A stretch of 64,000 bases of DNA from Acidimicrobiales bacterium. GTDB lineage: Bacteria > Actinomycetota > Acidimicrobiia > Acidimicrobiales > CADCSY01. The notes under the pieces are model-generated. The model was not told the origin of the DNA and did not search any database. It saw only the letters and a list, made by a program, of their open reading frames with translations. Shown in pieces: positions 23,804 to 55,953 of the stretch. Positions within the stretch are counted from its first letter, which is position 1, and every line of letters starts with the position of its first letter. The translations under genes were made by a program, and so were the position numbers. The DNA lies in assembly GCA_025463335.1 (NCBI GenBank), contig JAOBWJ010000163.1, forward strand, positions 14,671-78,670. Reading direction: 5' to 3'.

Positions 23804-23935
23804 CGGAGGGCCACTTTTCGCTTCATGATGGTCGACACCTGTCCGATACCTCGTCAGGCGGTGCTCTTTGGGGTGCCGCGAACCGAACGCCACGAACGGG
23901 ACGAACTGCACGTGCTGGTACCGGAAGGGTTCTCG

Positions 23936-27517: not shown

Positions 27518-27539
27518 GCCCGACGGTGATGGTGCACCC

Positions 27540-31064: not shown

Positions 31065-31895
31065 ATGAAGCGGCGACCGACCTTCAGCCACCACACTGGA
31101 GCGATCGACGCCCGACCCGCCCCCCGTACGCCGACCCCGGCCGCCCGCCTGCGCACGGTCCTCGTCGACGACGTCGAGGACATCCGGGCCCTCCTGCGCC
31201 TCGTGATGGAGCAGGACGGCCGGTTCGAGGTGGTGGGCGAGGCGGCGGATGGCAGGGAGGCCATCGCCCTCGTCACCGAGCACCAGCCCGACGTCGTCGT
31301 ACTCGACCTGACGATGCCGATCATGGACGGCCTCACGGCGCTGCCGACGCTGCGTCAGGCCGCTCCCGGGGTGCGGGTCGTGATCCTCTCCAGCTTCCCG
31401 GTCGACCAGATGGGCCCGGTCGCCGAGCAGGCCGGCGCCGTCGGCTATCTGGAGAAGGGCCGCAACGTGCCGACGCTGGCCGCCGACATCCACCGGCTGG
31501 CCACGGTGCTCGAGGCGGTGGAGGCGGTGCTCGAGAAGGAGCTGCCGGCCGAGCCCCGCAGCGCCGGCCGGGCGCGGGAGGCGGTGACCTCCGCCCTCGT
31601 GACCGAGGTGCCCGACGCCGCCCTCGACACGCTCGTGCTGCTCACCAGCGAGCTGGTCACCAACGTGGTGGCCCACGCCCGCACGTCGTGCCACCTCGGC
31701 GTCGAGCTGTTCCCCGACGTGGTCCGGGTCAGCGTCTCCGACGAGGACGACCGGCCGCTCCGGCCCCGGCACGCCAGCGCTGACGCCGAGTCCGGCCGGG
31801 GCCTGGGGCTGGTGGCGATGCTGAGCTCGAACTGGGGGATCATCACCCACGAACGGGGCAAGACGGTCTGGTTCGAGGTCCCCCGGGGCGCCTAG
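31065..31895 (+). CDS. REC domain fused to RsbW/SpoIIAB-like ATP-binding (HATPase_c_2) anti-sigma-type serine kinase domain
   Basis: Track ORF. REC: VLVDDVEDIR, VVVLDLTMPIMDG. C-terminal LLTSELVTNVVAHA and GRGLGLVAMLSSNWG match the RsbW-type N and G boxes. The start codon is uncertain because no clear SD is present. Confidence 0.8.
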   Translation: MKRRPTFSHHTGAIDARPAPRTPTPAARLRTVLVDDVEDIRALLRLVMEQDGRFEVVGEAADGREAIALVTEHQPDVVVLDLTMPIMDGLTALPTLRQAAPGVRVVILSSFPVDQMGPVAEQAGAVGYLEKGRNVPTLAADIHRLATVLEAVEAVLEKELPAEPRSAGRAREAVTSALVTEVPDAALDTLVLLTSELVTNVVAHARTSCHLGVELFPDVVRVSVSDEDDRPLRPRHASADAESGRGLGLVAMLSSNWGIITHERGKTVWFEVPRGA

Positions 31896-32909: not shown

Positions 32910-33182
32910 TCAGTCGACCGGTTCGAGCATGACCTCGTCGACGTAGCACCACAGCCACCGCTCCCCGGGCTGGAACGAGCGGATGATCGGGTGCTGGGTG
33001 CCACCGAAGTGCTTGGTGGCGTGCTTGCCGGGCGACTGGTCGCAGCAGCCGACGTGACCACACGACATGCACATCCGAAGGTGGACCCAGTCACGCCGGC
33101 CGGCAGCCAGGCAGTCCTCACAGCCGGGCGCCGAGGGCGTCACGTCACGCATCTGGCCGAGGTGGGAGCAGACCTCCATCAC
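32910..33182 (-). CDS. UBP-type zinc-finger protein
   Basis: Track ORF. Cys/His-rich: CEDC ... HLRMCMSCGHVGCCD ... KHATKHF. Confidence 0.75.
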   Translation of the reverse strand: MMEVCSHLGQMRDVTPSAPGCEDCLAAGRRDWVHLRMCMSCGHVGCCDQSPGKHATKHFGGTQHPIIRSFQPGERWLWCYVDEVMLEPVD

Positions 33183-33188
33183 GGCAAC

Positions 33189-33629
33189 CTAGGTTCCCGC
33201 CGGCGCCTTGGCCAGCGCCCCCTCGAGCCATTGGCGCAGGGCCGCGGCCGGGGCGGCGCCGGTCTGGCGGGCCACCACCTCGCCGTGGTCGAGGACCACG
33301 AGGGTGGGGATGCCCTGGACCTCGAAGCGCCGGGCCACCGAGGGCGACTGGTCGACGTCGACCTTCACCAGCTTGACCTTGCCGGCGAACTCCCGGGCCA
33401 GCTCCTCGAGCGCTGGGCTCACCGCCCGGCACGGCCCGCACCACGGCGCCCACAGGTCGAGCAGCACCGGCAGACCGGACTTCACGGCCACGTCGGTGAA
33501 GGTGGCGTCGTCGGCTTCGGCCAGCCACGGGAGCGGGTTGTGGCAGTTGCCGCAGCGCGGGATGCCCTCGCTCGCCGCCGGCACCCGGTTCTTGGTGCCG
33601 CAGTGCGGGCACACCACTACGTCGGTCAT
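33189..33629 (-). CDS. trxC: Thioredoxin with N-terminal zinc-finger extension (Trx2 type)
   Basis: C-terminal 146 codons of track ORF 33189..33746. ATG 33629 has GAGGAGG 5 nt upstream. Two CxxC pairs (CPHC, CGNC), then the WCGPC active site. Confidence 0.9.
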   Translation of the reverse strand: MTDVVVCPHCGTKNRVPAASEGIPRCGNCHNPLPWLAEADDATFTDVAVKSGLPVLLDLWAPWCGPCRAVSPALEELAREFAGKVKLVKVDVDQSPSVARRFEVQGIPTLVVLDHGEVVARQTGAAPAAALRQWLEGALAKAPAGT

Positions 33630-33639
33630 CGAAGCCTCC

Positions 33640-34473
33640 TCACGGCAGCGGCACCAGCAGCACGGGCGAGACCGACCGCCGGACCACGACGGCCGGCTCG
33701 CTGTTGTCGAGCAGGTGGTGGATGCCCGCGCGGGCGTGGGCGCCAACGACGACCAGCGACGCCGGGTTGAACCGCAGGTACGTCACCACCCCGTCGGCCG
33801 GGCGGATCGGATCCCACACGGTCACGGGCTCGACCTCGACCGGGCTGCTCGACGCGTAGGGCTCGACCACCTGGCGCAGACGGTCCTCCACGTCGCCCGA
33901 CGGGCCGAACCGGCGGCGGACCGGCCCGGCGCCCACCGGCTCCGGCACCGGCTCGGCCACGGTGACGGCCCGGACCGGCTCCCGAAGCAGTCGGCCCCAG
34001 CCCAGGGCCGCCGGGAGCACGGTGACGACCGAGGCCGACGTGGGGTCGACCGCTGCCACCACGCCCTCCCCCGGCCACGCCTGGTCGACCTCGGGCCCGA
34101 CGACGACGATCGGGTCGTGGCCCCGGGCCACCACGTCGACTGCCACCGAGCCCAACAGGGCGGCAGATCGGCCCCGGCCGTGACTGGCCATGCAGGCCAC
34201 CGCCGAGCCCAGCCGCCGGAGCGTCTCGTGGATCTCGCCGGCCGGGTCGCGGTCGACCACGACCGCGCGACGGACCCGCCGGCCCGGCAGCTCGACATCG
34301 GCGAGCGCTCGCTCCCGCTCGGGGATCTCCTCGACCGTGTCGACGGTGCTGAGCAGGTGGATCTCGGCATCGAGCGCCCCCGCCAACCAGTCGGCGATCG
34401 GCAGGGCGAGCAGCGAGAAGCTCGAGCCGTCGAGGGGCACCACGACTGCGGTGATGGACTCGGGCACGTTCAT
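33640..34473 (-). CDS. Universal stress protein, tandem USP domains
   Basis: Track ORF. Two USP-like halves, each ending in G-x-H/S-G-R/A-type and VPVLLV-type motifs (MASHGRGRSAALLGSVA; VVGAHARAGIHHLL ... SPVLLVP). Confidence 0.8.
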   Translation of the reverse strand: MNVPESITAVVVPLDGSSFSLLALPIADWLAGALDAEIHLLSTVDTVEEIPERERALADVELPGRRVRRAVVVDRDPAGEIHETLRRLGSAVACMASHGRGRSAALLGSVAVDVVARGHDPIVVVGPEVDQAWPGEGVVAAVDPTSASVVTVLPAALGWGRLLREPVRAVTVAEPVPEPVGAGPVRRRFGPSGDVEDRLRQVVEPYASSSPVEVEPVTVWDPIRPADGVVTYLRFNPASLVVVGAHARAGIHHLLDNSEPAVVVRRSVSPVLLVPLP

Positions 34474-34522: not shown

Positions 34523-35101
34523 TCATGGCATGACCGTCCGAGTGAACGGGCGACGACCCGTGCGGGGATCGAGCTGGCGCAGCCGCCATGCCAGCGCGAG
34601 GCGCACGACGCCGGCGAAGATCGCGTACCAGCCGATCAGCCACGTGATCACCAGGGCGCCGGCGCCCGGGGTGATCACGAGGAGGACGGCGAACAGCACC
34701 GACAGCACGCCGGCCACGGCCAGGAGCCACTCGCCGCGAAGCTCACGCCGCAGCCGCACCGCGGCCACGATCTCGAGCACGCCGGTGACGAACGCCCACC
34801 CGGCGACGACGAAGAGCAGAGCCAGGGCGGTGATGCCGGGCCAAACGAACGTGATGATGCCGGCGGCCACGCCGGCCAGGCCGATGAGGACGACGAGGGC
34901 CTTGGATGTCCCGTCGTGCGACCCGCTGGTGAAGGCGGCGACCAGCATCGACACGCCGTCGATCAGGGCCAAGGCGCCGAACAGCAGGATCAGCGCGGTG
35001 AGCGTGAGTCCCGGCCAGATCAGGGTGACCAGACCGAACAGCACGGCGGCGGCGCCTCGAATGGCGAAGCTCCGGCGGTCACCGACGTCGTACAGGATCA
35101 T
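34523..35101 (-). CDS. HdeD/DUF308-family membrane protein
   Basis: Track ORF 34523..35128 trimmed to ATG 35101 (GGAGG 8 nt upstream). Six hydrophobic segments with repeated G-x-x-x-I/L-x-G-I/V patterns. Confidence 0.75.
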   Translation of the reverse strand: MILYDVGDRRSFAIRGAAAVLFGLVTLIWPGLTLTALILLFGALALIDGVSMLVAAFTSGSHDGTSKALVVLIGLAGVAAGIITFVWPGITALALLFVVAGWAFVTGVLEIVAAVRLRRELRGEWLLAVAGVLSVLFAVLLVITPGAGALVITWLIGWYAIFAGVVRLALAWRLRQLDPRTGRRPFTRTVMP

Positions 35102-35153
35102 CGCGGCAACCTCCACGTTTGGCCGCACGGGTTGGGATCGCCGAACCCCTCCA

Positions 35154-37802
35154 TCAGACGCCGACCAGCTCCTGCTCGGGCGCCGCGGTCGGGGCGTCTC
35201 CCCAGGTGATGACCAGCTCGCCGTCCCGGACCTCGACCCGGATCACGGCGCCCTCCTGGATGGCACCCCCGAGCAGGGCCCGGCCGATCCGGGTCTCCAC
35301 CTCGTGGGCGATGAAGCGCTTGAGCGGGCGGGCGCCGTACACCGGGTCGTAGCCCTCGTGGGCGATGAGGCGCAGCGCGTCCTCCGTCACCTCCATCGAC
35401 ATCCGCTGGTCGGCCAGGCGGCTGCGCACGTCATCGAGCTGGAGGTCGACGATGCGCTCGATCTCCTGTTCGGTGAGCGGCTTGAACAGCACGATGTCGT
35501 CGATGCGGTTGAGGAACTCGGGGCGGAAGTGGCCCCGCAACTCGGCCATGACGCGGGCCTCGGCGTCGGCTGCGATCTGGCCGTCGGGGGTGAGCCCGTC
35601 GAGCAGGTAGATCGAGCCGATGTTCGACGTCATGATGATCACGGTGTTGCGGAAGTCGACCGTCCGGCCCTGGGCGTCGGTCAGCCGGCCGTCGTCGAGG
35701 ACCTGCAGCAGCGTGTTGAACACGTCGGCGTGGGCCTTCTCGATCTCGTCGAACAACAGCACCGAGTAGGGCTTGCGCCGCACGGCCTCGGTGAGCTGGC
35801 CACCCTCCTCGTAGCCCACGTAGCCCGGAGGGGCACCGACCAGGCGGCTCACCGTGTGCCGCTCCTGGTACTCGCTCATGTCGATGCGGACGATGTTCTC
35901 CTCGGTGTCGAACAGCGCCTCGGCCAGGGCCTTGGCCAGCTCGGTCTTCCCGACGCCGGTCGGGCCGAGGAAGACGAACGAACCGATCGGGCGGCGGGGG
36001 TCCTTGATGCCCGATCGGGCCCGGATGATGGCGTCGGTCACCAGCTGCACGGCCTGGTCCTGGCCGATGATCCGCTCGTGGAGGATCTCGTCGAGCCGGA
36101 GCAACTTCTGCCGCTCCCCCTCCTGGAGGCGGCTCACCGGGATGCCGGTCCACCGGGAGACGATGTTGGCGATCTCGGCCTCGGTCACCTCCTCGCGGAG
36201 CAGCCGGTGGGTCCCTTGCTTGGCGGCCAACCGCTCCTCCTCGGCCTTGAGCTGGCGCTCGAGCTCGGGCAGCTTCCCGTGGCGCAACTCGGCGGCCGTG
36301 TTGAGGTCGTAGGCCCGCTCGGCGGCGTCGGCCTGCTGGCGGATGCGCTCGATCTCCTCGCGCAGCGACTGCACCTTCTTGAGGGCGTGGCGCTCGGCCT
36401 CCCACTGGGCTCGCATGGCGTCGGCCTCCGAGCGCAGGTCGGCCAGCTCCCTGCGCAGTTCCTCCAGCCGGTCCTTGCTGGCCCTGTCCTTCTCCTTGGC
36501 GAGCGCCGCCTCCTCGATCTCGAGGCGGGTCACGCGCCGCGTCAGCTCGTCGAGCTCGGCCGGCATCGAGTCGATCTCGGTGCGCAGCATGGCGCACGCC
36601 TCGTCGACCAGGTCGATGGCCTTGTCCGGGAGGAACCGGTCGGAGATGTAACGATGGGACAGGACCACGGCGGCGACCAGGGCGGTGTCCTGGATCCCGA
36701 CGCCGTGGAAGACCTCGAAGCGCTCACGCAGGCCGCGGAGGATGGAGATGGCGTCCTCCTCGCTCGGCTCGTCGACCAGTACGGGCTGGAACCGGCGCTC
36801 GAGGGCCGCGTCCTTCTCGATGTGCTTGCGGTACTCGTCGAGCGTGGTCGCGCCGATGAGGTGCAGCTCGCCGCGGGCCAGCATGGGCTTGAGCATGTTG
36901 CCGGCGTCCATGGCTCCCTCGGCGGCGCCGGCGCCCACCACGTTGTGGACCTCGTCGATGAACAGAAGGATCCGACCCTCGGCCGCCGTGACCTCGGTGA
37001 GCACGGCCTTCAGGCGCTCTTCGAACTCGCCGCGGTACTTGGCCCCGGCCACCAGGGAGCCCATGTCGAGCGCGAACACCGTCTTGTCCCTGAGCCCCTC
37101 GGGCACGTCGCCGCGCATGATCCGTTGGGCCAAGCCCTCGACGATGGCCGTCTTGCCCACGCCCGGATCACCGATCAGCACCGGGTTGTTCTTGGTCTTG
37201 CGGGAGAGGATCTGGACGGTGCGACGGATCTCGGCATCGCGGCCGATGACCGGGTCGAGCCGGCCGGAACGGGCGTCGGCCACCAGATCCCGCCCGTACT
37301 TCTCGAGCGCCTCGTACGCCACCTCGGGCATGGCCGACGTCACCCGCTGGTTGCCTCGTATCGACGTCAACGCCTGGAGGAAGGCGTCCCGCGTGATCCC
37401 GTGCTGGGCCAGCAGCCGGCCGGCAGCGGTGGACGAGCCCTCGTCGAGGAGGGCCACGACGAGGTGCTCGACGGAGACGTAGTCGTCCTTCAGCCGCTTG
37501 GCCTGCTGCTCGGCGCTGTCCAGCAGGCGGGACAGGCGTTGGGTGATGAACACCTGACCGGGCGAAGCGCCCGGGCCCGTGACCTTCGGCCGTCGGGCCA
37601 GCTCGGCCTCCAGGTCGGCCTTCAGCCGGTCGGGGTCGGCGCCGGCCGCGGCGAGCAGCCGGGGCGTCAGGCCCTCCGGTTGGTCGAGCAGGGCGAGGAG
37701 GAGGTGCTCCCCATCCACCTCGGTGTGCCCGAAGCGCAGGGCCTTGGTCTGGGCGTCCTGCAGCGCCTCTTGCGACTTCTGGGTCAGGCGCTCGAGATCC
37801 AC
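35154..37802 (-). CDS. clpB: ATP-dependent chaperone/disaggregase ClpB
   Basis: Track ORF. Canonical N-terminus [18 protein letters not shown]. Two AAA+ modules ([15 protein letters not shown]; [17 protein letters not shown]) and a coiled-coil middle domain. Confidence 0.95.
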
Positions 37803-38104
37803 GGCGATCCTCCGGTTCGTGGTCGGGTGCGAAGGGCGGCTTCCAGCACTTCGATGCGGTCGAGCAGATCCACCACCACACCGAGGGCGGCGTAGTTGAG
37901 CGACAGGCCGGCGCGGAGCCGCTCCAGGCGGGCGGCGGCCGCGAGCTGGGCGGGGGGGAACCGCAGCTCGCCGGCCGGGCCCCGCGTCGCCTCCAACAAG
38001 CCCAGGGCGACGAGGCGTCGTACGAGCTCGGGATGCAGCCCGCTCGCTCGGGCGAAGGTCTCGAGGTCGAGGCGGGTGCGGCGCACCAGCACCGTTGTCG
38101 TCAT
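37784..38104 (-). CDS. MerR-type chaperone-operon regulator/modulator (CbpM-like or HspR-like)
   Basis: C-terminal 106 codons of track ORF 37784..38356. ATG 38104 overlaps the J-protein stop (ATGA). [27 protein letters not shown] ... fits a MerR-type HTH in the CbpM arrangement. The 3' end overlaps the clpB start by 19 nt. Confidence 0.65.
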
Positions 38105-39024
38105 CGTGATCTCCGGGGGTCGAAGCTGGATACGCGGGCCAGCTCCTCGAACAGGCGTTGCTCGTCGTCCGACAGCTTCCTCGGCACCACCATGCGGACC
38201 TCTGCGTAGAGGTCGCCGGGCGTGCCCTTCGGGTCGGGGATGCCCCTTCCCTTGAGTCGCAGACGCCGACCCGATGAGGTGCCGGCCGGCACCTTCACGG
38301 TGGCCGTCCCGCCCGGGTAGTGCACCGGCGCCGAGGTGCCGAGCGCCCCCTCCCACGGCGCGATCGGGAGCTCGACGTAGACGTCGCGACCCTCCACCCG
38401 GTAGCGCTTGCTCGGCGCCAGGTCGACGATGAGATAGAGGTCGCCGGGCGGTCCGCCGCCCGGGCCTCTCGAACCCTGGCCGCGAAGCCGGATGCGCTGG
38501 CCGTCGACCACGCCGGCGGGGATGTTCACGTCGAGGCGACGGGGACCGTCGGGGCCCGTGAGGGTGATCGTCCGCGTGGCGCCGCGGTAGGCGTCCTCGA
38601 GGGGCAGCTCGACCTCGACCTCCTGGTTGGCACCGCGTACCGGGGCACGGGGCCGGCGCCGGCCGCCGCCGAACATCTCGCCGAACAAGTCAGACAGGTC
38701 GATGTCGTCGAAGTCGGTCGACGACCACTGGACCCGCTGACCGCCCGCCGGCGCCCGGCCCCGCTGGGCCCATTGCGCGGCGTCGACGCCCTCGGGCACC
38801 TGGCGGAAGTCGTGGCCGAAGGCGTCGTATCGCTTGCGCGTGTCGGGGTCGGACAGGACGTCGTAGGCCTCGGCCACCTCGGCGAACCTCGCCTCGGCCG
38901 TCGGGTCCTTGTTCACGTCGGGGTGGTAGGTCCGGGCCAACTTGCGGTAGGCGCGCTGGATCTCCTCGGAGCTGGCGCCTCGGCCGACGCCGAGCACGTC
39001 GTAGAAGTCGGCCCGGTCGGCCAC
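38101..39024 (-). CDS. J-domain co-chaperone, class II (CbpA/DnaJ-like, no zinc-finger domain)
   Basis: Track ORF. J domain DFYDVLGV ... [13 protein letters not shown]. Gly-rich linker and two C-terminal beta domains. No CxxCxGxG repeats are present in the translation. Confidence 0.9.
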
Positions 39025-39546
39025 CTAGCGCCCCTGGGCGACGATCACGCCGGCCGGACGCAACACCGACCCGGCTCTGCCGTAGCCGGGGTGAACGGCG
39101 GTCACGATGGAGTTGGCCGGCGCCTCGCTGGCGACCGAACCGACGGCCTCGTGGCGTTCGGGGTCGAAGGCCTCACCGATGTCGTCGTAACGGGGGTAGC
39201 CGAGCTGGGCCAGGACCCCCAGCGCCTGGTCGAGCACGGCGCTGACGCCTTCGAGCACGGCATCGGCGGCCCGCTCCTCGTCCGCGTACTGCAGCGAGCG
39301 CTCGAGGTTGTCGACGACCGGCAACCACTGGGCAGCCACCCGCTCGCGCTCAGCGGCGCGCTCTCGGGCGACCTCCCGTTGGAACCGCTTGCGGAGGTTG
39401 TCCAGGTCGGCCAGCGCCCGCACCAGCGCTTCGTCCGGCGGTGGCCCGGCATCGTCCGGCGGTCGGCTCGCCTCGTCGGGCGGGCGAGCCTGTTCCTCCA
39501 CGACCTCGGGCGAATCCTCCCGGGCCTCGGTCTCCGGCTCGGCCAT
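39025..39546 (-). CDS. grpE: Nucleotide exchange factor GrpE
   Basis: Track ORF. ALADLDNLRKRFQRE and a C-terminal beta domain. Positioned between dnaK and the J-protein gene with gaps of 2 and 0 nt. Confidence 0.9.
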   Translation of the reverse strand: MAEPETEAREDSPEVVEEQARPPDEASRPPDDAGPPPDEALVRALADLDNLRKRFQREVARERAAERERVAAQWLPVVDNLERSLQYADEERAADAVLEGVSAVLDQALGVLAQLGYPRYDDIGEAFDPERHEAVGSVASEAPANSIVTAVHPGYGRAGSVLRPAGVIVAQGR

Positions 39547-39548
39547 GG

Positions 39549-41432
39549 CTAGCTCACGGTGAAGTCGGCGTCGATGACGTCGTCATCGGACGAGGACTGG
39601 GGCTGGTCGGTGAGGTCGACGTCGGGCCCGGCACCACCGCCGGTCGCGGCACCCAGGGAGTGGAACACCTGCTGGAGCTCGCCGATCAGCGGCCGGACAG
39701 TGTCGAGCGGCGCAGCTTCCTTCACGGCGTTGCGGGCCTGCTCCACGAGCTGCTCGGCCCGGGCCTTCTCGTGCATCGGCGCCTGGTCGCCCAGCTCGGA
39801 CAGCCGACGCTCGACCTGGTACGCGATGGCGTCGAGCTCGTTGCGAGCGTCGATCTCCTCACGGATCCGTGCGTCCTCCGCCCGATGCTCCTCGGCCTCC
39901 TTCACCATGCGGTCGATGTCGGCGGAGTCGAGGTTCGAGCTCTCGGTGATGGTCACCCCCTGCTCGGCCCCGGTGTCCTTGTCCCGCGCCGTCACGTGGA
40001 GGATCCCGTTGGCGTCGATCTCGGACGTCACGTCGATCTGGGTCTCGCCCCGGCGCGACGGCCGGAGGCCTTCAAGGCGGAACCGCCCGAGGACCCGGTT
40101 GTCGGCGGCCCGTTCCCGCTCACCCTGGAGCACGACGACGTCGACGGCCTGCTGGTTGTCCTCGGCCGTGCTGAACGTCTCCGTGCGCCGGGCCGGGATC
40201 GTCGTGTTGCGGTCGATGAGCTTGGTCATGACCCCGCCCATGGTTTCCACGCCGAGCGACAGCGGCGTGACGTCGAGCAGCAGGACGTCCTTGACCTCGC
40301 CCTTGATGATCGCCGCCTGGATGGCCGCTCCGACTGCCACGACCTCGTCGGGGTTCACCGTCATGTTCGGGTCCTTGCCACCCGTGAGGCGGCGGACCAG
40401 GTTCTGCACGGCGGGCATACGGGTCGACCCGCCGACGAGAATGACCTCGTCGATGTCGTTGGCCGTGACCTTGGCATCGGCCATGGCCTGCTGCACCGGT
40501 CCCATGCACCGATCGAGCAGATCAGCGGTGATCTCCTCGAACGTCGAGCGCATGATCGTCATCACCAGGTGCTTGGGCCCAGAGGCGTCGGCGGTGATGA
40601 ACGGCAGGTTCACCTGCGTCTGGGTCACCTGCGACAGCTCGACCTTGGCCTTCTCGGCCGCCTCGAACAGGCGTTGCAGGGCCTGCGGGTCCTGGCGCAG
40701 GTCGATGCCGTTGTCGCGCTGGAACTCGTCGGCCATGAGGTCGACGAGCCGGCGGTCGAAGTCGTCACCGCCGAGATGAGTGTCGCCGGAGGTGGCCCGC
40801 ACCTCGACCACGCCCTCGCCCACGTCGAGGATGCTGACGTCGAACGTGCCGCCGCCGAGGTCGAACACCAGCACGGTCTCGTCCGACCGCTGGTCCAGTC
40901 CGTACGCCAGGGCCGCCGCGGTGGGCTCGTTTATGATGCGGAGCACCTCGAGACCGGCGATCTTGCCGGCATCGCGCGTGGCCTGGCGCTGGGCGTCGTT
41001 GAAGTAGGCGGGAACGGTGATGACCGCCTCGGTCACCCGCTCACCGAGGAACTTCGAGGCGTCCTCCGCCAGCTTGCGCAGGATCATCGCCGAGATCTCC
41101 TCGGGGGCGTAGAGCTTGTCGCGCACCTTGACGCGGACGGCTCCGTCGGGTCCGTCCACCACGTCGAAGGGCACGGTCTCGATCTCGCTCTGGACCTCGT
41201 CGATCTTGCGGCCGATGAACCGCTTGATCGACGAGATCGTCCCCTTCGGGTTCAGGATCGCCTGGCGGCGGGCCACCTGGCCGACGAGACGCTCACCGTT
41301 GTCGGTGAACGCCACGACCGACGGGGTGGTGCGCTGTCCCTCGGCGTTGGGGATGACGGTGGGCTGGCCGCCCTCGACGGTCGCGATGACCGAGTTGGTC
41401 GTGCCCAGGTCGATGCCGACTGCCTTGGCCAT
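39549..41432 (-). CDS. dnaK: Hsp70 chaperone DnaK
   Basis: Track [28 protein letters not shown] and other Hsp70 signatures. Confidence 0.97.
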
Positions 41433-41441
41433 GTGTCCTCC

Positions 41442-41942
41442 TCAGGTCCCGCTGGAGGCGGGCTGTTGGGACTGTGCTTGGGCGGTCACCTGCTGCTGCT
41501 GTTGCTCACGGGACTGGGCCGTCACCTCTTGCTGCTCGTGTTCGTGACCAGCCACCATCACCTTCCGGGGCCTCGATTGCTCGGCCACGGGGATCATGAG
41601 CGTCAGCACGCCGTTGTCGTAGGAGGCCTCGACGTTCTCGGGGTCGAGGTTGTCCCCCAGCAAGAGCTCACGGGTGAACGTGCCCTGCGGTCGCTCGTTG
41701 ATCAGGACCTCCTGGCCCTCGGCCGGTTGCCACCGGCGCTCGACGCGCAGGGTGACCACGTTGCGCTCGACCGTGAGGTCGATGGCCTCGGGGTCGACGC
41801 CCGGGATGTCGAACTGGACGACGAGCTGGTCGCCCTCGCGGTAGGCGTCCATCGGGATCGTGTGGGCGCGGGGCTCACCCGGCTGGCCGAGCAGCTGGCC
41901 CACGCGGTCGAGTTCACGGAACGGATCGAAGCGCATCAACAT
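41442..41942 (-). CDS. Small heat-shock protein (Hsp20/alpha-crystallin) with Gln-rich C-terminal extension
   Basis: C-terminal 166 codons of track ORF 41442..42143. ATG 41942 has GAGGAG 6 nt upstream. Alpha-crystallin core MDAYREGDQLVVQFDIPGV ... ASYDNGVLTLMIPV. Only 9 nt upstream of dnaK. Confidence 0.9.
   Translation of the reverse strand: MLMRFDPFRELDRVGQLLGQPGEPRAHTIPMDAYREGDQLVVQFDIPGVDPEAIDLTVERNVVTLRVERRWQPAEGQEVLINERPQGTFTRELLLGDNLDPENVEASYDNGVLTLMIPVAEQSRPRKVMVAGHEHEQQEVTAQSREQQQQQVTAQAQSQQPASSGT
41480..41536 (-). repeat. In-frame 36-nt imperfect tandem duplication inside the hsp20 C-terminal tail
   Basis: GGGCGGTCACCTGCTGCTGCT (41480-41500) and GGGCCGTCACCTCTTGCTGCT (41516-41536) are 36 nt apart. 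They encode ...QQQVTAQA... and ...QQEVTAQS.... Confidence 0.5.
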
Positions 41943-41955
41943 GGAGATCTCCTCG

Positions 41956-42648
41956 TCAGGGGTTCGGCTGGGAAGCAGGGCGCCGGCGCACGGCCAGCAC
42001 GGTCCGGTCGTCGGCCGGGTCGCCCAGAGCGACGAGGCGGCGGCACAGGTGGTCGAGGGGGGCGTGGCGCGACCGGAGGGCCGTGGCGGCGAGACGGGCC
42101 AGCCCCCGGTCCAACTGGTTGTCGTGATGGTCGACGACGCCATCGGTGTAGAGGACGAGCGTGTCGCCCGGCTGGAGGCACACCGTCTGCACCACCGGCT
42201 CGGCCCGCTCGTACGGCGCGCCCAGCGGCGGCTGCAGGTTCTCGGTCAGGAACCGCACCGAGCCGTCAGCGCGCAGGACCAGCGGGGGCGGGTGGCCGGC
42301 ATTGGCCACGACGATCCGCCCATCCGACGTCACCGCCGTGCATACGACTGTCGCGAAGATGCCGTCGAGCAGCTCCAGCACCGGGCGGAGGTTGGCCAGC
42401 AGGTCGGCGGGTGCTGCGCCGCTCCGGGCCAGGCGGCGCAGGGCTGGGCGCAGGGCGTCCTTCACGGGGCGGGCCTGTGGTCCGTGACCGGCGGCGTCGC
42501 CGACGACCACGGCCATCGCGCCGTCCGGCAAGGTCAGCAGGTCACTCCAGTCACCGGACACGCCCGACAGGTCGGCCGGGAGCTCGCGGACGGCAGCGGC
42601 GAAACCGCCTCGCCCGACCTCGAGCTCGACCGCCCCGACTGCGCTCAC
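41956..42648 (-). CDS. SpoIIE/PP2C-family serine phosphatase, catalytic domain only
   Basis: Track ORF. GDWSD ... VVVGDAAGHG ... VANAGHPPPLV ... LVLYTDGV ... DDRTVLAV matches the SpoIIE/RsbU pattern. GTG start overlaps the stop of the small upstream ORF (GTGA). Confidence 0.8.
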   Translation of the reverse strand: MSAVGAVELEVGRGGFAAAVRELPADLSGVSGDWSDLLTLPDGAMAVVVGDAAGHGPQARPVKDALRPALRRLARSGAAPADLLANLRPVLELLDGIFATVVCTAVTSDGRIVVANAGHPPPLVLRADGSVRFLTENLQPPLGAPYERAEPVVQTVCLQPGDTLVLYTDGVVDHHDNQLDRGLARLAATALRSRHAPLDHLCRRLVALGDPADDRTVLAVRRRPASQPNP

Positions 42649-42854
42649 GCCGGACCCAGCTGTGACGTCAGCCGCAGCAGCTCGTCCTCGTCGGCTTCCA
42701 GCCGGGCCAGCGTCAGGCCGAGGAACCCTGCGTCCACGCCGATGTCGGCCGCCGCCCGGCCGAGCCCCTCGAGGGCCTGCAGCAGGCCGGCCATCCGCGT
42801 GTGGTGCTCCCGAACAGCATGAAGCACAGGTTCAACTGCATCCGCTCCGGCCAT
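42645..42854 (-). CDS. Small hypothetical protein (69 aa), helical
   Basis: Last 69 codons of track ORF 42645..43124, from ATG 42854. The stop overlaps the phosphatase start. No recognisable motif and no clear SD. Confidence 0.35.
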   Translation of the reverse strand: MAGADAVEPVLHAVREHHTRMAGLLQALEGLGRAAADIGVDAGFLGLTLARLEADEDELLRLTSQLGPA

Positions 42855-42925
42855 CGAAGGCAGGTTCGCGCCGGCCGTGAGGGGCGCACATCCCGCGAAC
42901 GCGTGGTCCCGAACCCCCGGTGCGG

Positions 42926-44659
42926 TCAGTCGGCCAGCGTCAGGGCCCTCAGCGTCTGCCAGGAACGGGTGGCCAGCTGGAGGTTGAACGCCGTCTCCGG
43001 CACCCCGAGGTCGTGCCCGCTGACCTCGCGGATTCGTCTGAGGCGGTACTTCAGCGTGCTGCGGTGGACGTTGAGGGCCCGGGCCGCGGTCTCGTGGTGC
43101 CGACCGCTGTCGAGGAACCGGCACAAGGTCAACACCAGCTCACCTCCTCGGTGGGCGTCGTAGTCCAGCAGAGCGCCCAACCACTCCCGGACGAAGCGAT
43201 CGATGCCGGCCGTGTCCTGCACGTTGGCGAGGATGCGGTAGACGCCAAGGTCGTCGAACGAGGTGGCCTGCTCGCTGTTACCGGCGATGTCCTGCACCTT
43301 CATGGCCAGCACGGCCTCCCCGTAGGACCGCGGGAAGTCGGCCGGCCGCCCACAACTCCCTCCGACGCCCACTTGGCACATCGTGCGACCCAGCTCGCCG
43401 GCTACCGCCAGCCGGAACTGCTCCCAGTCGGTATCGGTGTGGGCCAGGACGACGACGGCGCGACCACGACTCACCAGGAGCTCGCCGATGCCGGCGTCAC
43501 GCGACACCCGTCGCACGGCATGGAAGAAGACGTCGCTGCTCTTCTCCGGAGGTTGGCACCGCACGACGGCGACCCGGTGAGGCCGTCCGAGGTCATAGCC
43601 AAGGGCCTGGGCCCGCTCCTGGGCCCGCTCCTCGTCCATGCCGGTGAGCAGCTCCTCCACGAGATCGCGGCCGACCCGCACCTCGGTCTCGGCCATGCTC
43701 TGCAGGCGGGCCAGCTCCACGGCCAGGACAACCGCGCCGTGCTCGAGCGCGACGTGGGCCACCTCCCCGGCCGTACCGGTGGGATCGATCAGCACGAGCA
43801 CGCCGAGCACGTCGATGGCCGGGCGCGCCAACGCCAGCAAGCGGCCGCCGTGGCGCAGCGATGGGCCCTCTTCGGCCAGGCGGCCGAGGAGCTGCTCCCG
43901 GCTGGACGGATCGTCCTTCGGGTACGGGTCGGGCCGGGCGGGCCCGGCCCACGCCCGGAGGTTGCCGTACCGGTCCTCAACGGCGACCGAGTATCCGGTG
44001 AGTTCGTGCAGCGCCCTGGCGATGCCCTCCTGACCCTCGCCGGTCATGGCCACGCGCGTGAGGCGATCGTGGATGGCCGTGGTCTGCTCGAGGGTGGCGA
44101 CGGCGTGGGCCAACACCGCGTTGGCGCCGCGCAGCTCGGCGGCCGTGGCCCGTTCGCGAGCGTGGGCGCGTGTGTTCGCCAGGGCAATGCCCATCTGCTG
44201 AGCCAGCACCCGGAGCAGGAACTGCTCTGCCGCGCTCGGTGCGACATCCGCCCCCGCCACCAGATAGCCGAACGGGCCCTCCAGGCTGCGCAAGGGATAC
44301 GCCCACGCCCAGCCGTCAGGGGGGACGGTGATCTGGCCCCCGCCGGCCCCCAGCGCCACGAGCTGCGCCTCCACCTCTCGCCGCCCCGGATCGGTGCTGC
44401 ACGGCCCGGCCGGCAAGCACCACTCGCCTTCATCTGACAGGTACACGCCGTCCATTCGCCCCGGCACGAGCGACCGCACCGACGTGGCCGCCAGCTCCAG
44501 GAGCTGGGGCACGTCACCGCTCTCCACCATCAACATGGAGAGCACGAGCAGGCTCTGGAGGTTGGAGAGCTGCTCACGAACGGCCGGGTCATCAGCCAAT
44601 GCCGACCCCGCTCCCACCGCGCGATCGAGGGGGAGTCCGACGTTCGTCGTGTTACCCAC
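42926..44659 (-). CDS. PucR/CdaR-family transcriptional regulator with N-terminal GAF-like sensor regions
   Basis: Track ORF. GTG 44659 has GAGGAGG 5 nt upstream. C-terminal HTH ETAARALNVHRSTLKYRLRRIREVSG is typical of PucR_C. Confidence 0.8.
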   Translation of the reverse strand: MGNTTNVGLPLDRAVGAGSALADDPAVREQLSNLQSLLVLSMLMVESGDVPQLLELAATSVRSLVPGRMDGVYLSDEGEWCLPAGPCSTDPGRREVEAQLVALGAGGGQITVPPDGWAWAYPLRSLEGPFGYLVAGADVAPSAAEQFLLRVLAQQMGIALANTRAHARERATAAELRGANAVLAHAVATLEQTTAIHDRLTRVAMTGEGQEGIARALHELTGYSVAVEDRYGNLRAWAGPARPDPYPKDDPSSREQLLGRLAEEGPSLRHGGRLLALARPAIDVLGVLVLIDPTGTAGEVAHVALEHGAVVLAVELARLQSMAETEVRVGRDLVEELLTGMDEERAQERAQALGYDLGRPHRVAVVRCQPPEKSSDVFFHAVRRVSRDAGIGELLVSRGRAVVVLAHTDTDWEQFRLAVAGELGRTMCQVGVGGSCGRPADFPRSYGEAVLAMKVQDIAGNSEQATSFDDLGVYRILANVQDTAGIDRFVREWLGALLDYDAHRGGELVLTLCRFLDSGRHHETAARALNVHRSTLKYRLRRIREVSGHDLGVPETAFNLQLATRSWQTLRALTLAD

Positions 44660-44842
44660 GCCGCCTCCTCTCGTGTGCTTCGGAGCGTAGCCATCTGTCC
44701 TTCAGGGACGCACGGGCCTCCCCCCAAAGAGCCACTCGACCACAGACCGCGCGGCACTCGTCGGTCTGGCGGAAACCAGCGGGCTCGGTTTCGTCCCAGC
44801 GGGACATGGCCGCCGGGATGCGCCCGAAGGAGGCTGGACGCT

Positions 44843-46426
44843 GTGTCCACCTGCATCGACAGTGCTGCCCCAATCGAACCCGACGCGATCGATGATGCCG
44901 TCGCCGTCGTGGAGACCTTGGTGTTGGACGGCCGCTACGGCGATGCCGCCGAGGTCGCTCAGTCCGCCCTCCGGCATGACCGCGTTCTGGCCGAGGAGGG
45001 GGCCCGGCTCCGACTCGCCCTCTCGACCCTGCTCTTCGTGAGCGGCCAGCCCGGCGCCGTCGATGAGGCTGACATCGTCCTCGCGCAGCCCGATCTGCCC
45101 GACGAGCTCCACGTGCGAGCCGAGCTGGCCCGGCTGCTGGGCCTCCTCGCGGCCGACGAGCTGGACGCTGCCCGGGGCCAGGCCCAGATCATGCTCGCTG
45201 AGAGCAACCCCGCGGCCATCGCCGGCGCCCTGCTCGCCTTCGGCTTGCTGGCGTGGGACGACGGGCGGGTCAACGACAGCATCAGCTTCGTCAAGGCCGC
45301 GGTGCAGCGGGCCGACGGCGGGGCCGAGGAAGCGCGCCGCATCCATCCCCGCGTTGCCCTGACGGCGATGCTCATCGCGGTCGGCGAGCTCCGCGAGGCG
45401 GCCGACTGCCTGACCGCCGCCCGGGACGAGATCGACGAGGTCGGCGACGTCCTCTGGAACGACGCCCCACACGTCTTCCTGGCCTGCCTCCACGTGGCCG
45501 AGGGCCACCTCGACCAGGCCGTGGCCGAGGTGGAGCAGGCGCTGGCCGAGTCGGAGTCGCTGGGCACCACGCTCCTGGTCCCCCTGGCCCATTTCACCTG
45601 CGCCCACGTGGCCTTGCTGCGGGGCGACCTCGATGAGGCGGCCCGCCAGCTCCGGGCCGTGCCGCCAGGCGCGGGACCCCGGATCGGGTACGGCCGGGCC
45701 CTGCGGGTGTGGGTGGAGGCGCGTCTCGAGGCCGGCCGCCACGGGCTTCGAACGGTCGTCGTCGACGATGCCGCCGACCTCTATGCCGCGCCGGTCGCCC
45801 ATTGGCGCCTGTTCGTCGAGGAGCCGGCGTCCGCCGCCTGGTTCGTCCGGGCCGCGCTCGCTGCGGGCCGGACGAAGGAAGCGGCCACGGTCGCCAGCTG
45901 TGCCGAGCTGGTCGCCGCCATGAACCCCGGGGTCGGGACCGTGGCCGCCAGCGCCGACCACGCCCGCGGGGTGCTCGACCGCGATGCCGACGTGCTGGAC
46001 CGCGCCGCCGCCGGCCACACACGGGCGTGGGCCAAGGCGTCGGCCATGGAGGAGGCAGCCGTCGTGTTGCTCGACCGCGGCGACGAGGCGGGCGCCCGGG
46101 AGCGGTTGGCCGCCGCCGTCACCCACTACGAGGCGGCAGGCGCCACGCACGACGCTGCCCGGGTGCGGGGTCGGCTGCGCCATGTCGCCACTCGGCCGAC
46201 AGGGCGAGACGGGCGCCCGGTGCGGGGCTGGGCCAGCCTCACCGACACCGAGGGACACGTGGCCGATCTCGTGGCCTCGGGTCTCACCAACCCCGAGGTG
46301 GGCGAGCGGGTCTACCTCTCGCGCCACACCATCGACTTCCACCTGCGCCAGATCTACCGCAAGCTCGAGATCCATTCCCGGGTCGAGCTCGCCCGCCTGG
46401 TCACTCGGCGCGACCTGCGCCCGTAG
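44843..46426 (+). CDS. LuxR-family regulator with long all-helical (TPR-like) N-terminal region, no P-loop
   Basis: Track ORF 44675..46426 trimmed to GTG 44843 (GAAGGAGG 9 nt upstream). C-terminal LTDTEGHVADLVASGLTNPEVGERVYLSRHTIDFHLRQIYRKL. No Walker A motif is visible. Confidence 0.8.
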   Translation: MSTCIDSAAPIEPDAIDDAVAVVETLVLDGRYGDAAEVAQSALRHDRVLAEEGARLRLALSTLLFVSGQPGAVDEADIVLAQPDLPDELHVRAELARLLGLLAADELDAARGQAQIMLAESNPAAIAGALLAFGLLAWDDGRVNDSISFVKAAVQRADGGAEEARRIHPRVALTAMLIAVGELREAADCLTAARDEIDEVGDVLWNDAPHVFLACLHVAEGHLDQAVAEVEQALAESESLGTTLLVPLAHFTCAHVALLRGDLDEAARQLRAVPPGAGPRIGYGRALRVWVEARLEAGRHGLRTVVVDDAADLYAAPVAHWRLFVEEPASAAWFVRAALAAGRTKEAATVASCAELVAAMNPGVGTVAASADHARGVLDRDADVLDRAAAGHTRAWAKASAMEEAAVVLLDRGDEAGARERLAAAVTHYEAAGATHDAARVRGRLRHVATRPTGRDGRPVRGWASLTDTEGHVADLVASGLTNPEVGERVYLSRHTIDFHLRQIYRKLEIHSRVELARLVTRRDLRP

Positions 46427-46468: not shown

Positions 46469-46780
46469 ATGGGCATCACCGTGCACGACGCCAAGCGAGC
46501 TCGCACCAACCTCGAGGAGGCGCTGGAGTCGGCAGTCACGTTCCTCTCCCGGCATCCCGAGCACGCCGCGCTGGCGGCCAGCGCCGGGTCGATCGCACAG
46601 CGACTGGCCGCCACCACGGTCGGAGGCCGGGAGGCCGACCCGGCCGATCCCGGCGCCGTCGCCCTGCTCAACGATGCGGTGGCCGTGGGCAACGACGTGC
46701 TGGCCCAGACCGACGCGGGCCGCAAGGTCCCCCGGCTCACCAGCCGCATCGAGGACGCCGGCAAGCTGCTCGCCGGCTGA
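46469..46780 (+). CDS. Hypothetical protein (103 aa)
   Basis: Track ORF. G/C-rich third positions. No SD, but a TAACGT hexamer ends 7 nt before the ATG, compatible with a leaderless transcript. Confidence 0.5.
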   Translation: MGITVHDAKRARTNLEEALESAVTFLSRHPEHAALAASAGSIAQRLAATTVGGREADPADPGAVALLNDAVAVGNDVLAQTDAGRKVPRLTSRIEDAGKLLAG

Positions 46781-50794: not shown

Positions 50795-51454
50795 ATGGGC
50801 CTGAAGGGGTTCGAACGGCGCCTGGAGCGCCTGGTAGAGGGCGTCTTCACGCGCGCCTTCAAGTCGTCGCTGCGTCCGGTGGAGCTGGGACGGCGCCTGA
50901 TCCGGGAGATGGACGACCAGCGCACGGTGAACGTGCAGGGCAACGTGGCCGCGCCCAACCACTTCACGATCACCCTCGGACCCGACGACTACGCGCAGTT
51001 CGCCGAGATCGAGGAGAGCCTGCTGCGGGCGCTGGCCGACGAGGCCCGCACCCACGCCCGCGAGGAGAACTACGTCTTCATGGGCCCCGTCGAGGTCCAT
51101 CTGAACAAGGACGCCGACCTCGGCGTGGGCTCGTTCGGGCTGTCGGCCCGGTTCAAGGAGGGTGCTGGCGGCACGGCCGGCGGTTCGGTCGTGCTCGGCG
51201 ACGGCCGCCGATTCCCGCTCAGCGACGTGCCCCTCACCATCGGCCGGGCCACCGACGCCACCGTCCGGGTGAGCGACACCAGCGTGAGCCGGCGCCACGC
51301 CGAGATCCGCCCCTCCGGCGGGGGCTGGACGGTCGTCGACCTGGGCTCCACCAACGGCACCCGCGTCAACGGTGCCCCGATCACCGAGCACCGCCTGCAG
51401 GATGGCGACACCGTCACCGTCGGGGACGCCACGATGCGGTTCGAGGCCGGGTAG
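50795..51454 (+). CDS. fhaA: FhaA-type protein (DUF3662 N-domain + C-terminal FHA domain)
   Basis: Track ORF. MGLKGFERRLERLVEGVF N-terminus. FHA: LTIGRATDATVRVSDTSVSRRHAEI ... DLGSTNGTRVNG. Conserved position next to tRNA-Leu. Confidence 0.85.
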   Translation: MGLKGFERRLERLVEGVFTRAFKSSLRPVELGRRLIREMDDQRTVNVQGNVAAPNHFTITLGPDDYAQFAEIEESLLRALADEARTHAREENYVFMGPVEVHLNKDADLGVGSFGLSARFKEGAGGTAGGSVVLGDGRRFPLSDVPLTIGRATDATVRVSDTSVSRRHAEIRPSGGGWTVVDLGSTNGTRVNGAPITEHRLQDGDTVTVGDATMRFEAG

Positions 51455-51921
51455 TGCCCGAACCGCTCCTCGCGATCCTCAAGCTCTGTGCCCTGGCGCT
51501 GCTCTACCTCTTCTTCCTCCGGGTGATCCGGGCCGTCTGGGCTGAGGTCGCGCCCGCTCGGGCCGGCGCCGCCCCGGCGCCGGTGCCCAAGCCCAAGGCC
51601 GCCCGGCGGACGAGCAGCCGGCGAGGCAAGGGGGGCGACGCACTCGTGGTGGTCGAGCCCAAGGAGCAGAAGGGCCAGCGCTACGCCCTCGAGGACGAGG
51701 TCACCATGGGCCGGGCGGCGGGCTGCACGGTCACCCTCGACGACAGCTACGCCTCGCAGCTCCACGCCCGGGTGTTCCGCCGCGACGACGGTCTCCACGT
51801 GGAGGACCTGGGGTCGACCAACGGGACCTACGTCAACGGCAAGAAGGTCACCGCTCCCCTACCGATCAACCGGGGTGACCGGGTGAAGGTCGGCGCCACC
51901 GTGTTCGAGGTTCAAGCATGA
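51454..51921 (+). CDS. fhaB: FhaB/FipA-type membrane-anchored FHA protein
   Basis: Tail of track ORF 50782..51921. GTG 51454 shares G with the fhaA TAG stop. One TM helix, then FHA (VTMGRAAGCTVTLDDSYASQLHARV ... DLGSTNGTYVNG). Confidence 0.8.
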   Translation: MPEPLLAILKLCALALLYLFFLRVIRAVWAEVAPARAGAAPAPVPKPKAARRTSSRRGKGGDALVVVEPKEQKGQRYALEDEVTMGRAAGCTVTLDDSYASQLHARVFRRDDGLHVEDLGSTNGTYVNGKKVTAPLPINRGDRVKVGATVFEVQA

Positions 51922-55941: not shown

Positions 55942-55953
55942 GGTTCACCCCGC

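Follow-up and report, generated by a model that had tools for sequence, protein, structure and literature searches.

A phased upstream box in the predicted promoter of a chaperone-containing stress operon of Acidimicrobiia

Bacterial heat-shock control is usually told through sigma-32, HrcA and CIRCE, HspR and HAIR, CtsR, and RNA thermometers. The Acidimicrobiia are abundant in soil, freshwater, marine and acid habitats, and they have almost never been studied genetically. Here we analyze the heat-shock genes in a 64-kb stretch of DNA (71% G+C) from an Acidimicrobiales metagenome-assembled genome (MAG), referred to below as the window. The genes dnaK, grpE and clpB lie on the minus strand in a long collinear string behind a gene for a PucR-family regulator, and our main subject is the 71-nt gap between that gene and the string, together with the promoter predicted there. 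From the divergent neighbor of pucR to the end of the string, the genes are as follows.

44843-46426, plus strand: LuxR-family regulator (luxR), 527 aa, with a GerE helix-turn-helix at the C-terminus (Pfam, 2.8e-13), divergent from pucR
42926-44659, minus strand: PucR/CdaR-family regulator (pucR) of the EtnR1 type, with Pfam domains GGDEF_2 and HTH_30, followed by the 71-nt gap
42645-42854, minus strand: small open reading frame (ORF), 69 aa, no Pfam family, with a 4-nt GTGA overlap onto the phosphatase gene
41956-42648, minus strand: SpoIIE/PP2C phosphatase, 230 aa (Pfam SpoIIE, 9.5e-41), followed by 13 nt
41442-41942, minus strand: hsp20, small heat-shock protein (Pfam HSP20, 8.3e-21), followed by 9 nt
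39549-41432, minus strand: dnaK (NCBIfam DnaK equivalog, 941.9 bits against a cut-off of 648), followed by 2 nt
39025-39546, minus strand: grpE (Pfam GrpE, 4e-30), followed by 0 nt
38101-39024, minus strand: J-protein of the CbpA/class II type (Pfam DnaJ and DnaJ_C), with a 4-nt overlap with the MerR_2 gene
37784-38104, minus strand: MerR_2 protein, CbpM/DafA-like (PF13591, 5.2e-12), with a 19-nt overlap with clpB
35154-37802, minus strand: clpB (TIGR03346, 1339.5 bits against a cut-off of 1232)
34523-35101, minus strand: DUF308 membrane protein (Pfam), with ATG at 35101 after GGAGG and an alternative GTG start at 35128
33640-34473, minus strand: universal stress protein with tandem Usp domains (Pfam)
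33189-33629, minus strand: thioredoxin of the thioredoxin-2 type (Pfam), 10 nt after the Usp gene
32910-33182, minus strand: zf-UBP zinc-finger protein (Pfam), the last gene of the collinear string

The gene order, start codons, gaps and overlaps from pucR to clpB had all been listed in an earlier note on this DNA, and the ORFs and their Pfam and NCBIfam identities bear that list out. The string extends beyond clpB, through the genes for DUF308, Usp, thioredoxin-2 and zf-UBP, to position 32910 with gaps of at most 52 nt, and the gene after zf-UBP is convergent. With 12 genes behind the 71-nt gap and such short distances between them, there is no space for a classical intergenic promoter. Scans of 34-46 kb found no terminator-like site and no sigma-70 consensus promoter on the operon strand, a result that is uninformative for an actinobacterium with 71% G+C. 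From this arrangement we infer a stress super-operon of 12 genes and about 10 kb, in which the chaperone genes occupy the middle and have no promoter of their own.

Related loci, given below by L numbers, were collected in two ways. A scan of metagenomes with a PucR alignment yielded 55 loci, whose genes were mapped by tblastn, and four operons lacking PucR (L142, L143, L145, and L147) were found through MerR_2 orthologues on long contigs. Simple MEDS-PucR operons without chaperone genes account for about 40 of the 55 PucR loci. In others the chaperones are present: luxR is divergent from pucR and the latter is followed by the small ORF, the phosphatase gene and dnaK in L005/L006, and by dnaK-grpE-J-MerR_2-clpB, with no small ORF, phosphatase gene or hsp20, in L097; in L098, pucR is followed by dnaK. 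Among the operons without PucR, luxR is followed by dnaK and the rest of the operon in L143, by the small ORF and then dnaK in L147, and by the small ORF, yflT and then dnaK in L145, while L142 has luxR and, further along, BON, G6PD and two hsp20 genes before dnaK. A Usp gene is kept after clpB in all four of these, the DUF308 gene is there in L145 and L147, and thioredoxin-2 is conserved in L142 and L147. Judged by gene content and order, dnaK-grpE-J-MerR_2-clpB-(DUF308)-Usp-(Trx) is a conserved cluster of the Acidimicrobiia. The location of grpE and clpB with dnaK/J in this class has been noted earlier (PMC10490939), and a literature search for PucR with dnaK, or for Acidimicrobiia dnaK with LuxR, found no description of such a system.

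Loci whose proteins are only about 55% identical have a conserved sequence 20-40 nt behind the PucR stop, and a weight matrix built from it defines a 19-bp element, here called the stress box, which is followed by a hexamer resembling a −10 element. In the window, both lie in the 71-nt gap.

42889-42907, minus strand: stress box ACCACGCGTTCGCGGGATG, 19 bp, 29.4 bits, upstream element of the predicted promoter
42862-42867, minus strand: −10-like hexamer GAACCT, 21 nt after the box, overlapping the right arm of an inverted repeat described below

The box is the sole strong match in the 64 kb, with the next best scoring 12.3 bits. Across all loci we found 27 box sites, and a gap in score separates box sites (at least 18 bits) from the background (at most 16 bits in 3.9 Mb); shuffles gave about 0.25 weak box matches that also carry the −10 hexamer. 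The class consensus of the box is ACCACGCGATCgcGGGATG, with a weak (G/C)ANNNT −10 hexamer 20-21 nt after it. In the window, L005, L097, and L098, the PucR stop is followed by the box at 20-40 nt, and a box also precedes the dnaK operon or its leading small ORF in loci that have neither PucR nor PP2C (L143 at 6478, L145 at 5738, and L147 at 6294). Sites outside the training set precede genes for BON, hsp20/DUF1931, G6PD, an HtrA-like protease, an NfeD protease, a cNMP-binding oxidoreductase, DUF5335, zf-UBP, the small-ORF family, and PP2C, the last in L004, L149, L151, and L152. The earlier note had suggested that the chaperones may be driven from upstream of, or within, the phosphatase gene, and the upstream 71-nt gap that it flagged does hold the only recognizable promoter. 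Most likely, a promoter in this gap, and not HspR or HrcA sites, drives the chaperone genes. Promoters of this kind appear to form a conserved Acidimicrobiia class that is apparently undescribed.

Two contigs without a dnaK operon carry several boxes each, at 2070, 2964, 5883, 8847, and 8913 in L004 and at 5821, 7005, and 7030 in L151. These three to five boxes stand within a few kilobases, before PP2C, BON, DUF5335, zf-UBP and small-ORF genes. The zf-UBP gene has a box of its own in both contigs (8847 in L004 and 7005 in L151), with divergent back-to-back boxes between it and the small ORF. Such clustering suggests a sizeable regulon with bidirectional promoter pairs.

The spacing between box and hexamer is nearly invariant. 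The pattern NANNNT, mostly (G/C)A.GCT, occurs at an offset of 20 or 21 nt in 19 of 20 aligned sites and in all seven sites added later, where chance would give about 4.5% per site, and its first base is G or C, not T, in 18 of the 20. Many sites have an ATG or GTG 6-7 nt behind the hexamer, and in L145 (5789 and 3603), L149 (6445), and L151 (6971) this codon is the independently annotated start. Such a position of the start codon, directly behind the −10 element, is a hallmark of actinobacterial mRNAs that are leaderless. In the window, GAACCT is followed after 7 nt by the small-ORF ATG (42854), which has no Shine-Dalgarno sequence, and the transcript is predicted to be leaderless and to start at the A of this ATG. 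The box ends 34 nt before the predicted start, compared with about 35 nt in the class; with the hexamer set at −12 to −7, the box would extend from about −53 to −35 and be centered near −44. The constant spacing to the −10 element, the lack of a −35 hexamer, and the rarity of T as the first base of the −10 point to a class II activator rather than to a repressor or a dedicated sigma factor.

The last of these possibilities can be stated more specifically: box and hexamer together could be the promoter of a SigB/SigF-like alternative general-stress sigma factor, with the PP2C as an RsbU/RsbX-like partner-switching or feedback phosphatase. In keeping with this, the motif is asymmetric and always points toward the gene, the −10 is non-canonical with its predominant G or C in first position, and the regulon resembles general-stress regulons (Usp, YflT, BON, hsp20, and G6PD), with a SpoIIE-type PP2C as a core member; a gene encoding a receiver (REC) domain and an RsbW-like HATPase_c_2 domain is present at 31065-31895. 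However, the conserved element is a contiguous 19-bp block at about −53 to −35 followed by an unconserved spacer of 20-21 nt. Spacers of the sigma-70 family are 15-19 nt long, and to our knowledge a 19-bp block with a 20-21-nt spacer fits no geometry of that family. Furthermore, no sigma, anti-sigma or STAS gene was found among the annotated neighbors in the window and about 10 related loci, in which the constant neighbor is a LuxR-family gene instead. We thus consider a dedicated sigma factor quite improbable.

Three other readings of the gap sequence were discarded. A SigB-like promoter (GTTT-N14-GGGTAT, with GGGATG as the −10) was rejected because the presumed −35 is not conserved and the hexamer 20-21 nt downstream is, and a ClgR-like site (GTTCGC-N5-GCG) because GTTCGC is missing from L097 and L098. 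The third concerns the inverted repeat GTTCGCG (42900-42894)-N23-CGCGAAC (42870-42864), which had been flagged in the earlier note. The repeat is indeed present at 42864-42900, but it is no rarer than chance, since a perfect inverted repeat of at least 7 bp occurs in 20% of the 71-nt stretches of the window and in 26% of shuffles of the gap. Its left arm falls inside the 19-bp box and its right arm overlaps the −10 region, so that the repeat is best seen as a by-product of these two elements and not as a hairpin, which also accounts for its being partly kept in L005 but not at other loci. A hairpin, attenuator or thermometer function was dropped, given that the RNA of the gap folds less stably than its own shuffles (z = +1.69) and that an Rfam scan of 32-47 kb returned nothing relevant.

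As a separate observation on leaders, PucR is followed directly by dnaK in L097 (4540-4663) and L098 (2828-2940), where the predicted 5′ leader is about 95-130 nt long. The two leaders have blocks in common, such as GCCTCGGAAGAACGCG and GCCTCGAAGCAACGCG, and could hold a further regulatory element.

The classical operators of actinobacterial and other heat-shock genes were searched for across the whole 64-kb window. With up to three mismatches allowed, there were no matches to HAIR (CTTGAGT-N7-ACTCAAG) and none to CIRCE (TTAGCACTC-N9-GAGTGCTAA), in agreement with the absence previously noted by eye between 41940 and 44842. The premise that the MerR-like gene closing the dnaK-grpE-J set is hspR does not hold. 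The product of this gene belongs to Pfam MerR_2 (PF13591, the CbpM family), not MerR_1, and scores 19.8 bits against the NCBIfam HspR model, whose cut-off is 105; against the NCBIfam CbpM model it scores 21 bits, with a cut-off of 138. A profile built from 24 orthologues led to CbpM (3ucs, 2e-5) and DafA (9dvi, 5.7e-4) as the only relevant solved relatives, and among more than 1000 homologues that carry PF13591, many are named 'chaperone modulator CbpM' (NCBI and JGI). The predicted fold, a winged helix with a single long helix as in CbpM, also has CbpM as its best match. The J-protein has DnaJ and DnaJ_C only, with no zinc-finger domain match in Pfam, and scores alike on the NCBIfam models for DnaJ and for curved-DNA-binding protein. 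On account of the missing zinc finger, PF13591, and the profile and fold matches, the J-protein and the MerR_2 protein look like a CbpA/CbpM pair. By these comparisons the MerR_2 protein is closest to CbpM/DafA, and the operon has no recognizable HspR. The regulatory logic distinct from HspR and HrcA that the earlier note proposed is thereby supported, with neither operator and no HspR-type repressor in evidence.

The gene order has counterparts in two known systems. In Thermus thermophilus the order is dnaK-grpE-dnaJ-dafA(-clpB), and E. coli has a cbpA-cbpM pair. As in these, the window combines a J-protein lacking a zinc finger with a small MerR-like modulator, followed by clpB, but the sequence similarity is weak, the NCBIfam CbpM cut-off is missed, and the cluster is extended by regulatory and general-stress genes. 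The dnaK-grpE-dnaJ-hspR operon of Streptomyces and Mycobacterium, which is governed by HspR and HAIR, resembles the window in the order of dnaK, grpE, a J-protein gene and a MerR-like gene, and likewise has clpB and hsp20 in the same regulon. By contrast, HAIR is missing from the window, the MerR-like protein there belongs to the MerR_2/CbpM type and falls short of the HspR cut-off, the J-protein lacks a zinc finger, clpB is joined to the operon, and the upstream element is a different, phased box.

The second resemblance raises the alternative, modeled on Streptomyces and Helicobacter, that the MerR_2 protein is a divergent HspR and the box its operator in place of HAIR, with autorepression lifted once unfolded proteins titrate DnaK or the CbpA-like co-chaperone. 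The MerR_2 gene occupies the hspR position of dnaK-grpE-dnaJ-hspR operons, 21 of its 24 orthologues match the NCBIfam HspR model below the cut-off (best E = 2.9e-9), and DNA-bound MerR-like domains, which share the MerR-type winged helix, are also among the top fold matches. Moreover, the protein accompanies the box in every dnaK locus, and a box before dnaK, clpB (within the operon) and hsp20 would amount to a classical HspR-type regulon. There is an evolutionary link between CbpM and HspR (PMC4063869), and in H. pylori cbpA is paired with hspR (PMC7074700); given that link and the matches below the cut-off, the MerR_2 protein may bind DNA. The score of 19.8 against 105 bits, the assignment to MerR_2 and not MerR_1, the restriction of solved relatives to CbpM and DafA, and the single long helix nevertheless speak against an HspR. 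So does the promoter itself, whose strict 20-21-nt distance to a weak −10 that never begins with T fits an activator-dependent promoter and not a strong one under repression, and whose half-sites are conserved asymmetrically. The regulon also takes in much that is not a chaperone, namely G6PD, BON, Usp, PP2C, and an oxidoreductase. We regard a divergent HspR acting on the box as unlikely, if worth keeping in mind.

The constant neighbor of the dnaK operon is the LuxR-family gene, which is found at every dnaK locus examined, whereas PucR is an optional insert. Orthologues of the window's LuxR (40-54% identity) adjoin the dnaK operon in L005, L097, L142, L143, L145, and L147. AAA_16 is present in the orthologues of L143 and L147, and TPR repeats also in that of L143, domains by which these orthologues resemble MalT/LAL regulators. 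In the window, luxR starts with a GTG preceded by GAAGGAGG. The gene is followed by a 103-aa ORF (46469-46780, plus strand) with coding-like G+C at third codon positions, no Pfam family, and no match in related loci; in L005, a zf-UBP gene follows luxR in its stead. In L142 (209-2849), the AAA_16 and GerE parts of luxR are in two separate ORFs (792 and 97 aa, respectively), which may reflect a frameshift or a pseudogene.

Regulators of the MalT/LAL kind offer the closest parallel for the box. In Actinoplanes sp. SE50/110, the motif bound by the MalT-like LuxR activator is TCATCC-N5-GGATGA; it overlaps the −35 region, and 34.4 ± 1 nt separate its 3′ end from the start site. The MalT box of E. 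coli is GGGGA(T/G)GAGG (PMC7567727). As in such systems, a large LuxR-family gene lies beside its presumed target in the window, and the motif lies over −35, its 3′ end falling about 34-35 nt short of the start, here the predicted one. The window box contains GGATG, similar to the MalT core GGA(T/G)GA, and the core promoters are likewise weak, with many sites clustered in one genomic region. The differences are that the targets are chaperone and general-stress genes and not those of sugar or amino-acid metabolism, that the box reads ACCACGCGATC..GGGATG and not TCATCC-N5-GGATGA, that the regulator has no detectable ATPase domain, and that its binding is predicted.

A second motif tracks PucR. 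In the pucR/luxR intergenic region, two palindromes stand at the same distance from the two divergent genes.

44793-44805: palindrome GTCCCAGCGGGAC (GTCC-N5-GGAC), 37 nt before the luxR start, candidate operator of the PucR family
44697-44709: palindrome GTCCTTCAGGGAC (GTCC-N5-GGAC), 37 nt before the pucR start

GTCC-N5-GGAC has three copies in the 64 kb, two of them within this 183-nt region. Among the MEDS/PucR operons, the palindrome is enriched 24-fold in the 200 nt upstream (P = 3e-19) and 20-fold in the 150 nt downstream (P = 1.6e-11), and its distance to luxR is 37 nt in the window, L149, and L002 alike. We propose GTCC-N5-GGAC as a candidate operator of the EtnR1-like PucR family. The palindromes, which mark promoter regions of MEDS/PucR operons and of neighboring luxR genes, are often paired, as in L002 (8603 and 8677) and L098 (844 and 898); others are found in L149 (3286), L105, L113, L116, and L126.

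The PucR of the window has Pfam domains GGDEF_2 (1.4e-19) and HTH_30 (1.6e-17) and a weak GAF_2 match at its N-terminus. A MEDS gene lies directly upstream in about 40 of the 55 orthologous loci, and none adjoins pucR in the window. The MEDS and PucR pair corresponds to the EtnR2/EtnR1-type two-protein regulator of Actinobacteria, for which no EtnR1 binding site was given (PMC11197473). The architecture of the window's protein is like that of EtnR1, with about 570 aa, a GAF-like region and the PucR helix-turn-helix, and most of its orthologues are paired with MEDS. In the window, however, the MEDS partner is missing, the neighbors are stress genes and not genes of alkene catabolism, and the GTCC-N5-GGAC operator is newly proposed here.

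The earlier note had suggested that chaperone expression is coupled to a PucR-dependent or Ser/Thr-phosphorylation input. In its strong form, PucR itself would drive or gate the chaperones, through binding in the 71-nt gap or read-through from pucR, and the phosphatase would supply a phosphorylation input specific to this operon. Four independent loci do have pucR immediately before a dnaK-type operon (the window, L005, L097, and L098), and read-through is conceivable, since pucR and the small ORF are separated by neither a terminator-like site nor a stable hairpin. Loci collected through PP2C orthologues (about 45-50% identity) also show the genes for PucR, the LuxR-family protein and PP2C recurring together. 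The distribution of the box tells against this: it precedes the dnaK operon in L143, L145, and L147, which lack both PucR and PP2C, and more than 40 (about 45) loci with PucR orthologues have no box. PucR was rejected as the box binder on these grounds, and GTCC-N5-GGAC, the motif that does track PucR, is absent from the 71-nt gap. Since the same box serves dnaK operons without either gene, PucR and PP2C are not the defining input, and the suggested coupling is not supported as stated. Direct control by PucR thus seems to us a slim prospect; its input is most likely indirect, by way of the LuxR-family regulator.

The phosphatase consists of a bare catalytic domain with no sensor domain. D51, D169, and D213, which we take to be the metal-binding aspartates of PP2C enzymes, are invariant among 26 orthologues. 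Of eight orthologous loci, six have the gene in the box regulon and the other two (L002 and L003) have it in a luxR-PP2C operon. The SigB general-stress module of Bacillus includes a feedback phosphatase, RsbX. In a similar way, the window has a stand-alone PP2C without a sensor inside the regulon that it may reset, and the content of the two regulons is similar (Usp and YflT), although no sigma, anti-sigma or STAS partner was seen and the promoter geometry is not of the SigB type. By this analogy, the PP2C may be a regulon-encoded feedback phosphatase of the RsbX kind. When genome contigs were scanned with the PP2C alignment, the matches were all generic PP2Cs of Streptomyces and similar genera, because the back-translated patterns were too common. 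In L005, from an Acidimicrobiaceae MAG, the PP2C frame (5500-6345) runs about 90 nt into dnaK (start at 6254); the overlap is either genuine or due to an error of assembly or frame.

The small ORF comes first behind the box in five loci (the window, L005, L145, L147, and L004) and is translationally coupled to PP2C in the window and L005. It is predicted to form a two-helix hairpin (model pLDDT 90), and the 16 homologues found are all annotated as 'hypothetical'. A fold search gave arms of seryl-tRNA synthetases and designed coiled coils as top matches and provided no functional lead.

Several signaling genes are found elsewhere in the window and in one related locus. On the plus strand, FhaA (FhaA_N and FHA, 50795-51454), a PstP-like PP2C (51918-53156), FtsW/RodA (53153-54478), and a PknB-like PASTA Ser/Thr kinase (55954-57906) make up a conserved actinobacterial cell-division signaling cluster (50795-57906), so that another PP2C, unrelated to the first, and a kinase are found at a distance of 10 kb from the stress operon. 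On the other side, two very large genes (23825-27517, plus strand, and 28240-31005, minus strand) encode PAS/GGDEF/EAL fusions to a HisKA/HATPase_c histidine kinase, which unusually combines c-di-GMP enzymes with a kinase; they are flanked by an OmpR-type response regulator (27450-28235) and the receiver and RsbW-like HATPase_c_2 gene mentioned above. In L145 (16466-18267), a GAF-GAF-HisKA_3 kinase and a NarL/LuxR-type response regulator, similar to DosS/DosR, lie 3 kb downstream of the stress cluster.

Taken together, these data lead us to favor, with moderate confidence, a model in which the super-operon is transcribed from the box promoter under a LuxR-family class II activator, with PucR one tier above and the PP2C in feedback. 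A single transcript would run from the promoter in the 71-nt gap through the small ORF to zf-UBP. The MalT/LAL-like LuxR-family regulator would bind the box as a class II activator, while PucR would autoregulate and control luxR through the GTCC-N5-GGAC sites before the pucR and luxR starts. The PP2C, as a member of the regulon, could provide RsbX-like feedback. In evolutionary terms, the small ORF, PP2C and hsp20 genes would have been inserted between an ancestral promoter and dnaK.

A number of points weigh against this model. The LuxR-family regulator is most likely the protein that binds the box, but this assignment rests on gene neighborhood and analogy, and the MerR_2 protein, which co-occurs with the box as faithfully, could be the binder. 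The LuxR copy of the window has GerE and no AAA_16 domain in Pfam, the luxR-PP2C operons of L002 and L003 lack the box, and the box before hsp20-dnaK in L142 is weak (14 bits). The window box ends in GGGATG, which matches five of the six positions of the MalT core, and it is an imperfect palindrome, with half-sites ACCACGCGA and TCGCGGGAT that are not equally conserved. Promoters internal to the PP2C or hsp20 coding sequence may exist. Finally, the start site, the extent of the operon and heat induction are predictions from sequence, and the relatives are all metagenomic contigs.

More tentatively, the same elements may describe a heat-shock and general-stress regulon of the Acidimicrobiia at large, in which a MalT-like LuxR protein would act at the −44 box under a PucR(/MEDS) tier, the PP2C and the leaderless hairpin protein would close a feedback loop, and HspR, HrcA and a dedicated sigma factor would play no part. 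If true, this would be a previously undescribed architecture of bacterial chaperone control. The analysis corrects the tempting annotation of the MerR-like gene in such operons as hspR, and it provides a promoter box, a PucR-associated operator, a candidate activator with its cascade, and a list of regulon members, all derived from sequence. If confirmed, these would reveal an activator-based chaperone circuit in a deep actinobacterial class, and the box could be used to annotate stress regulons in MAGs.

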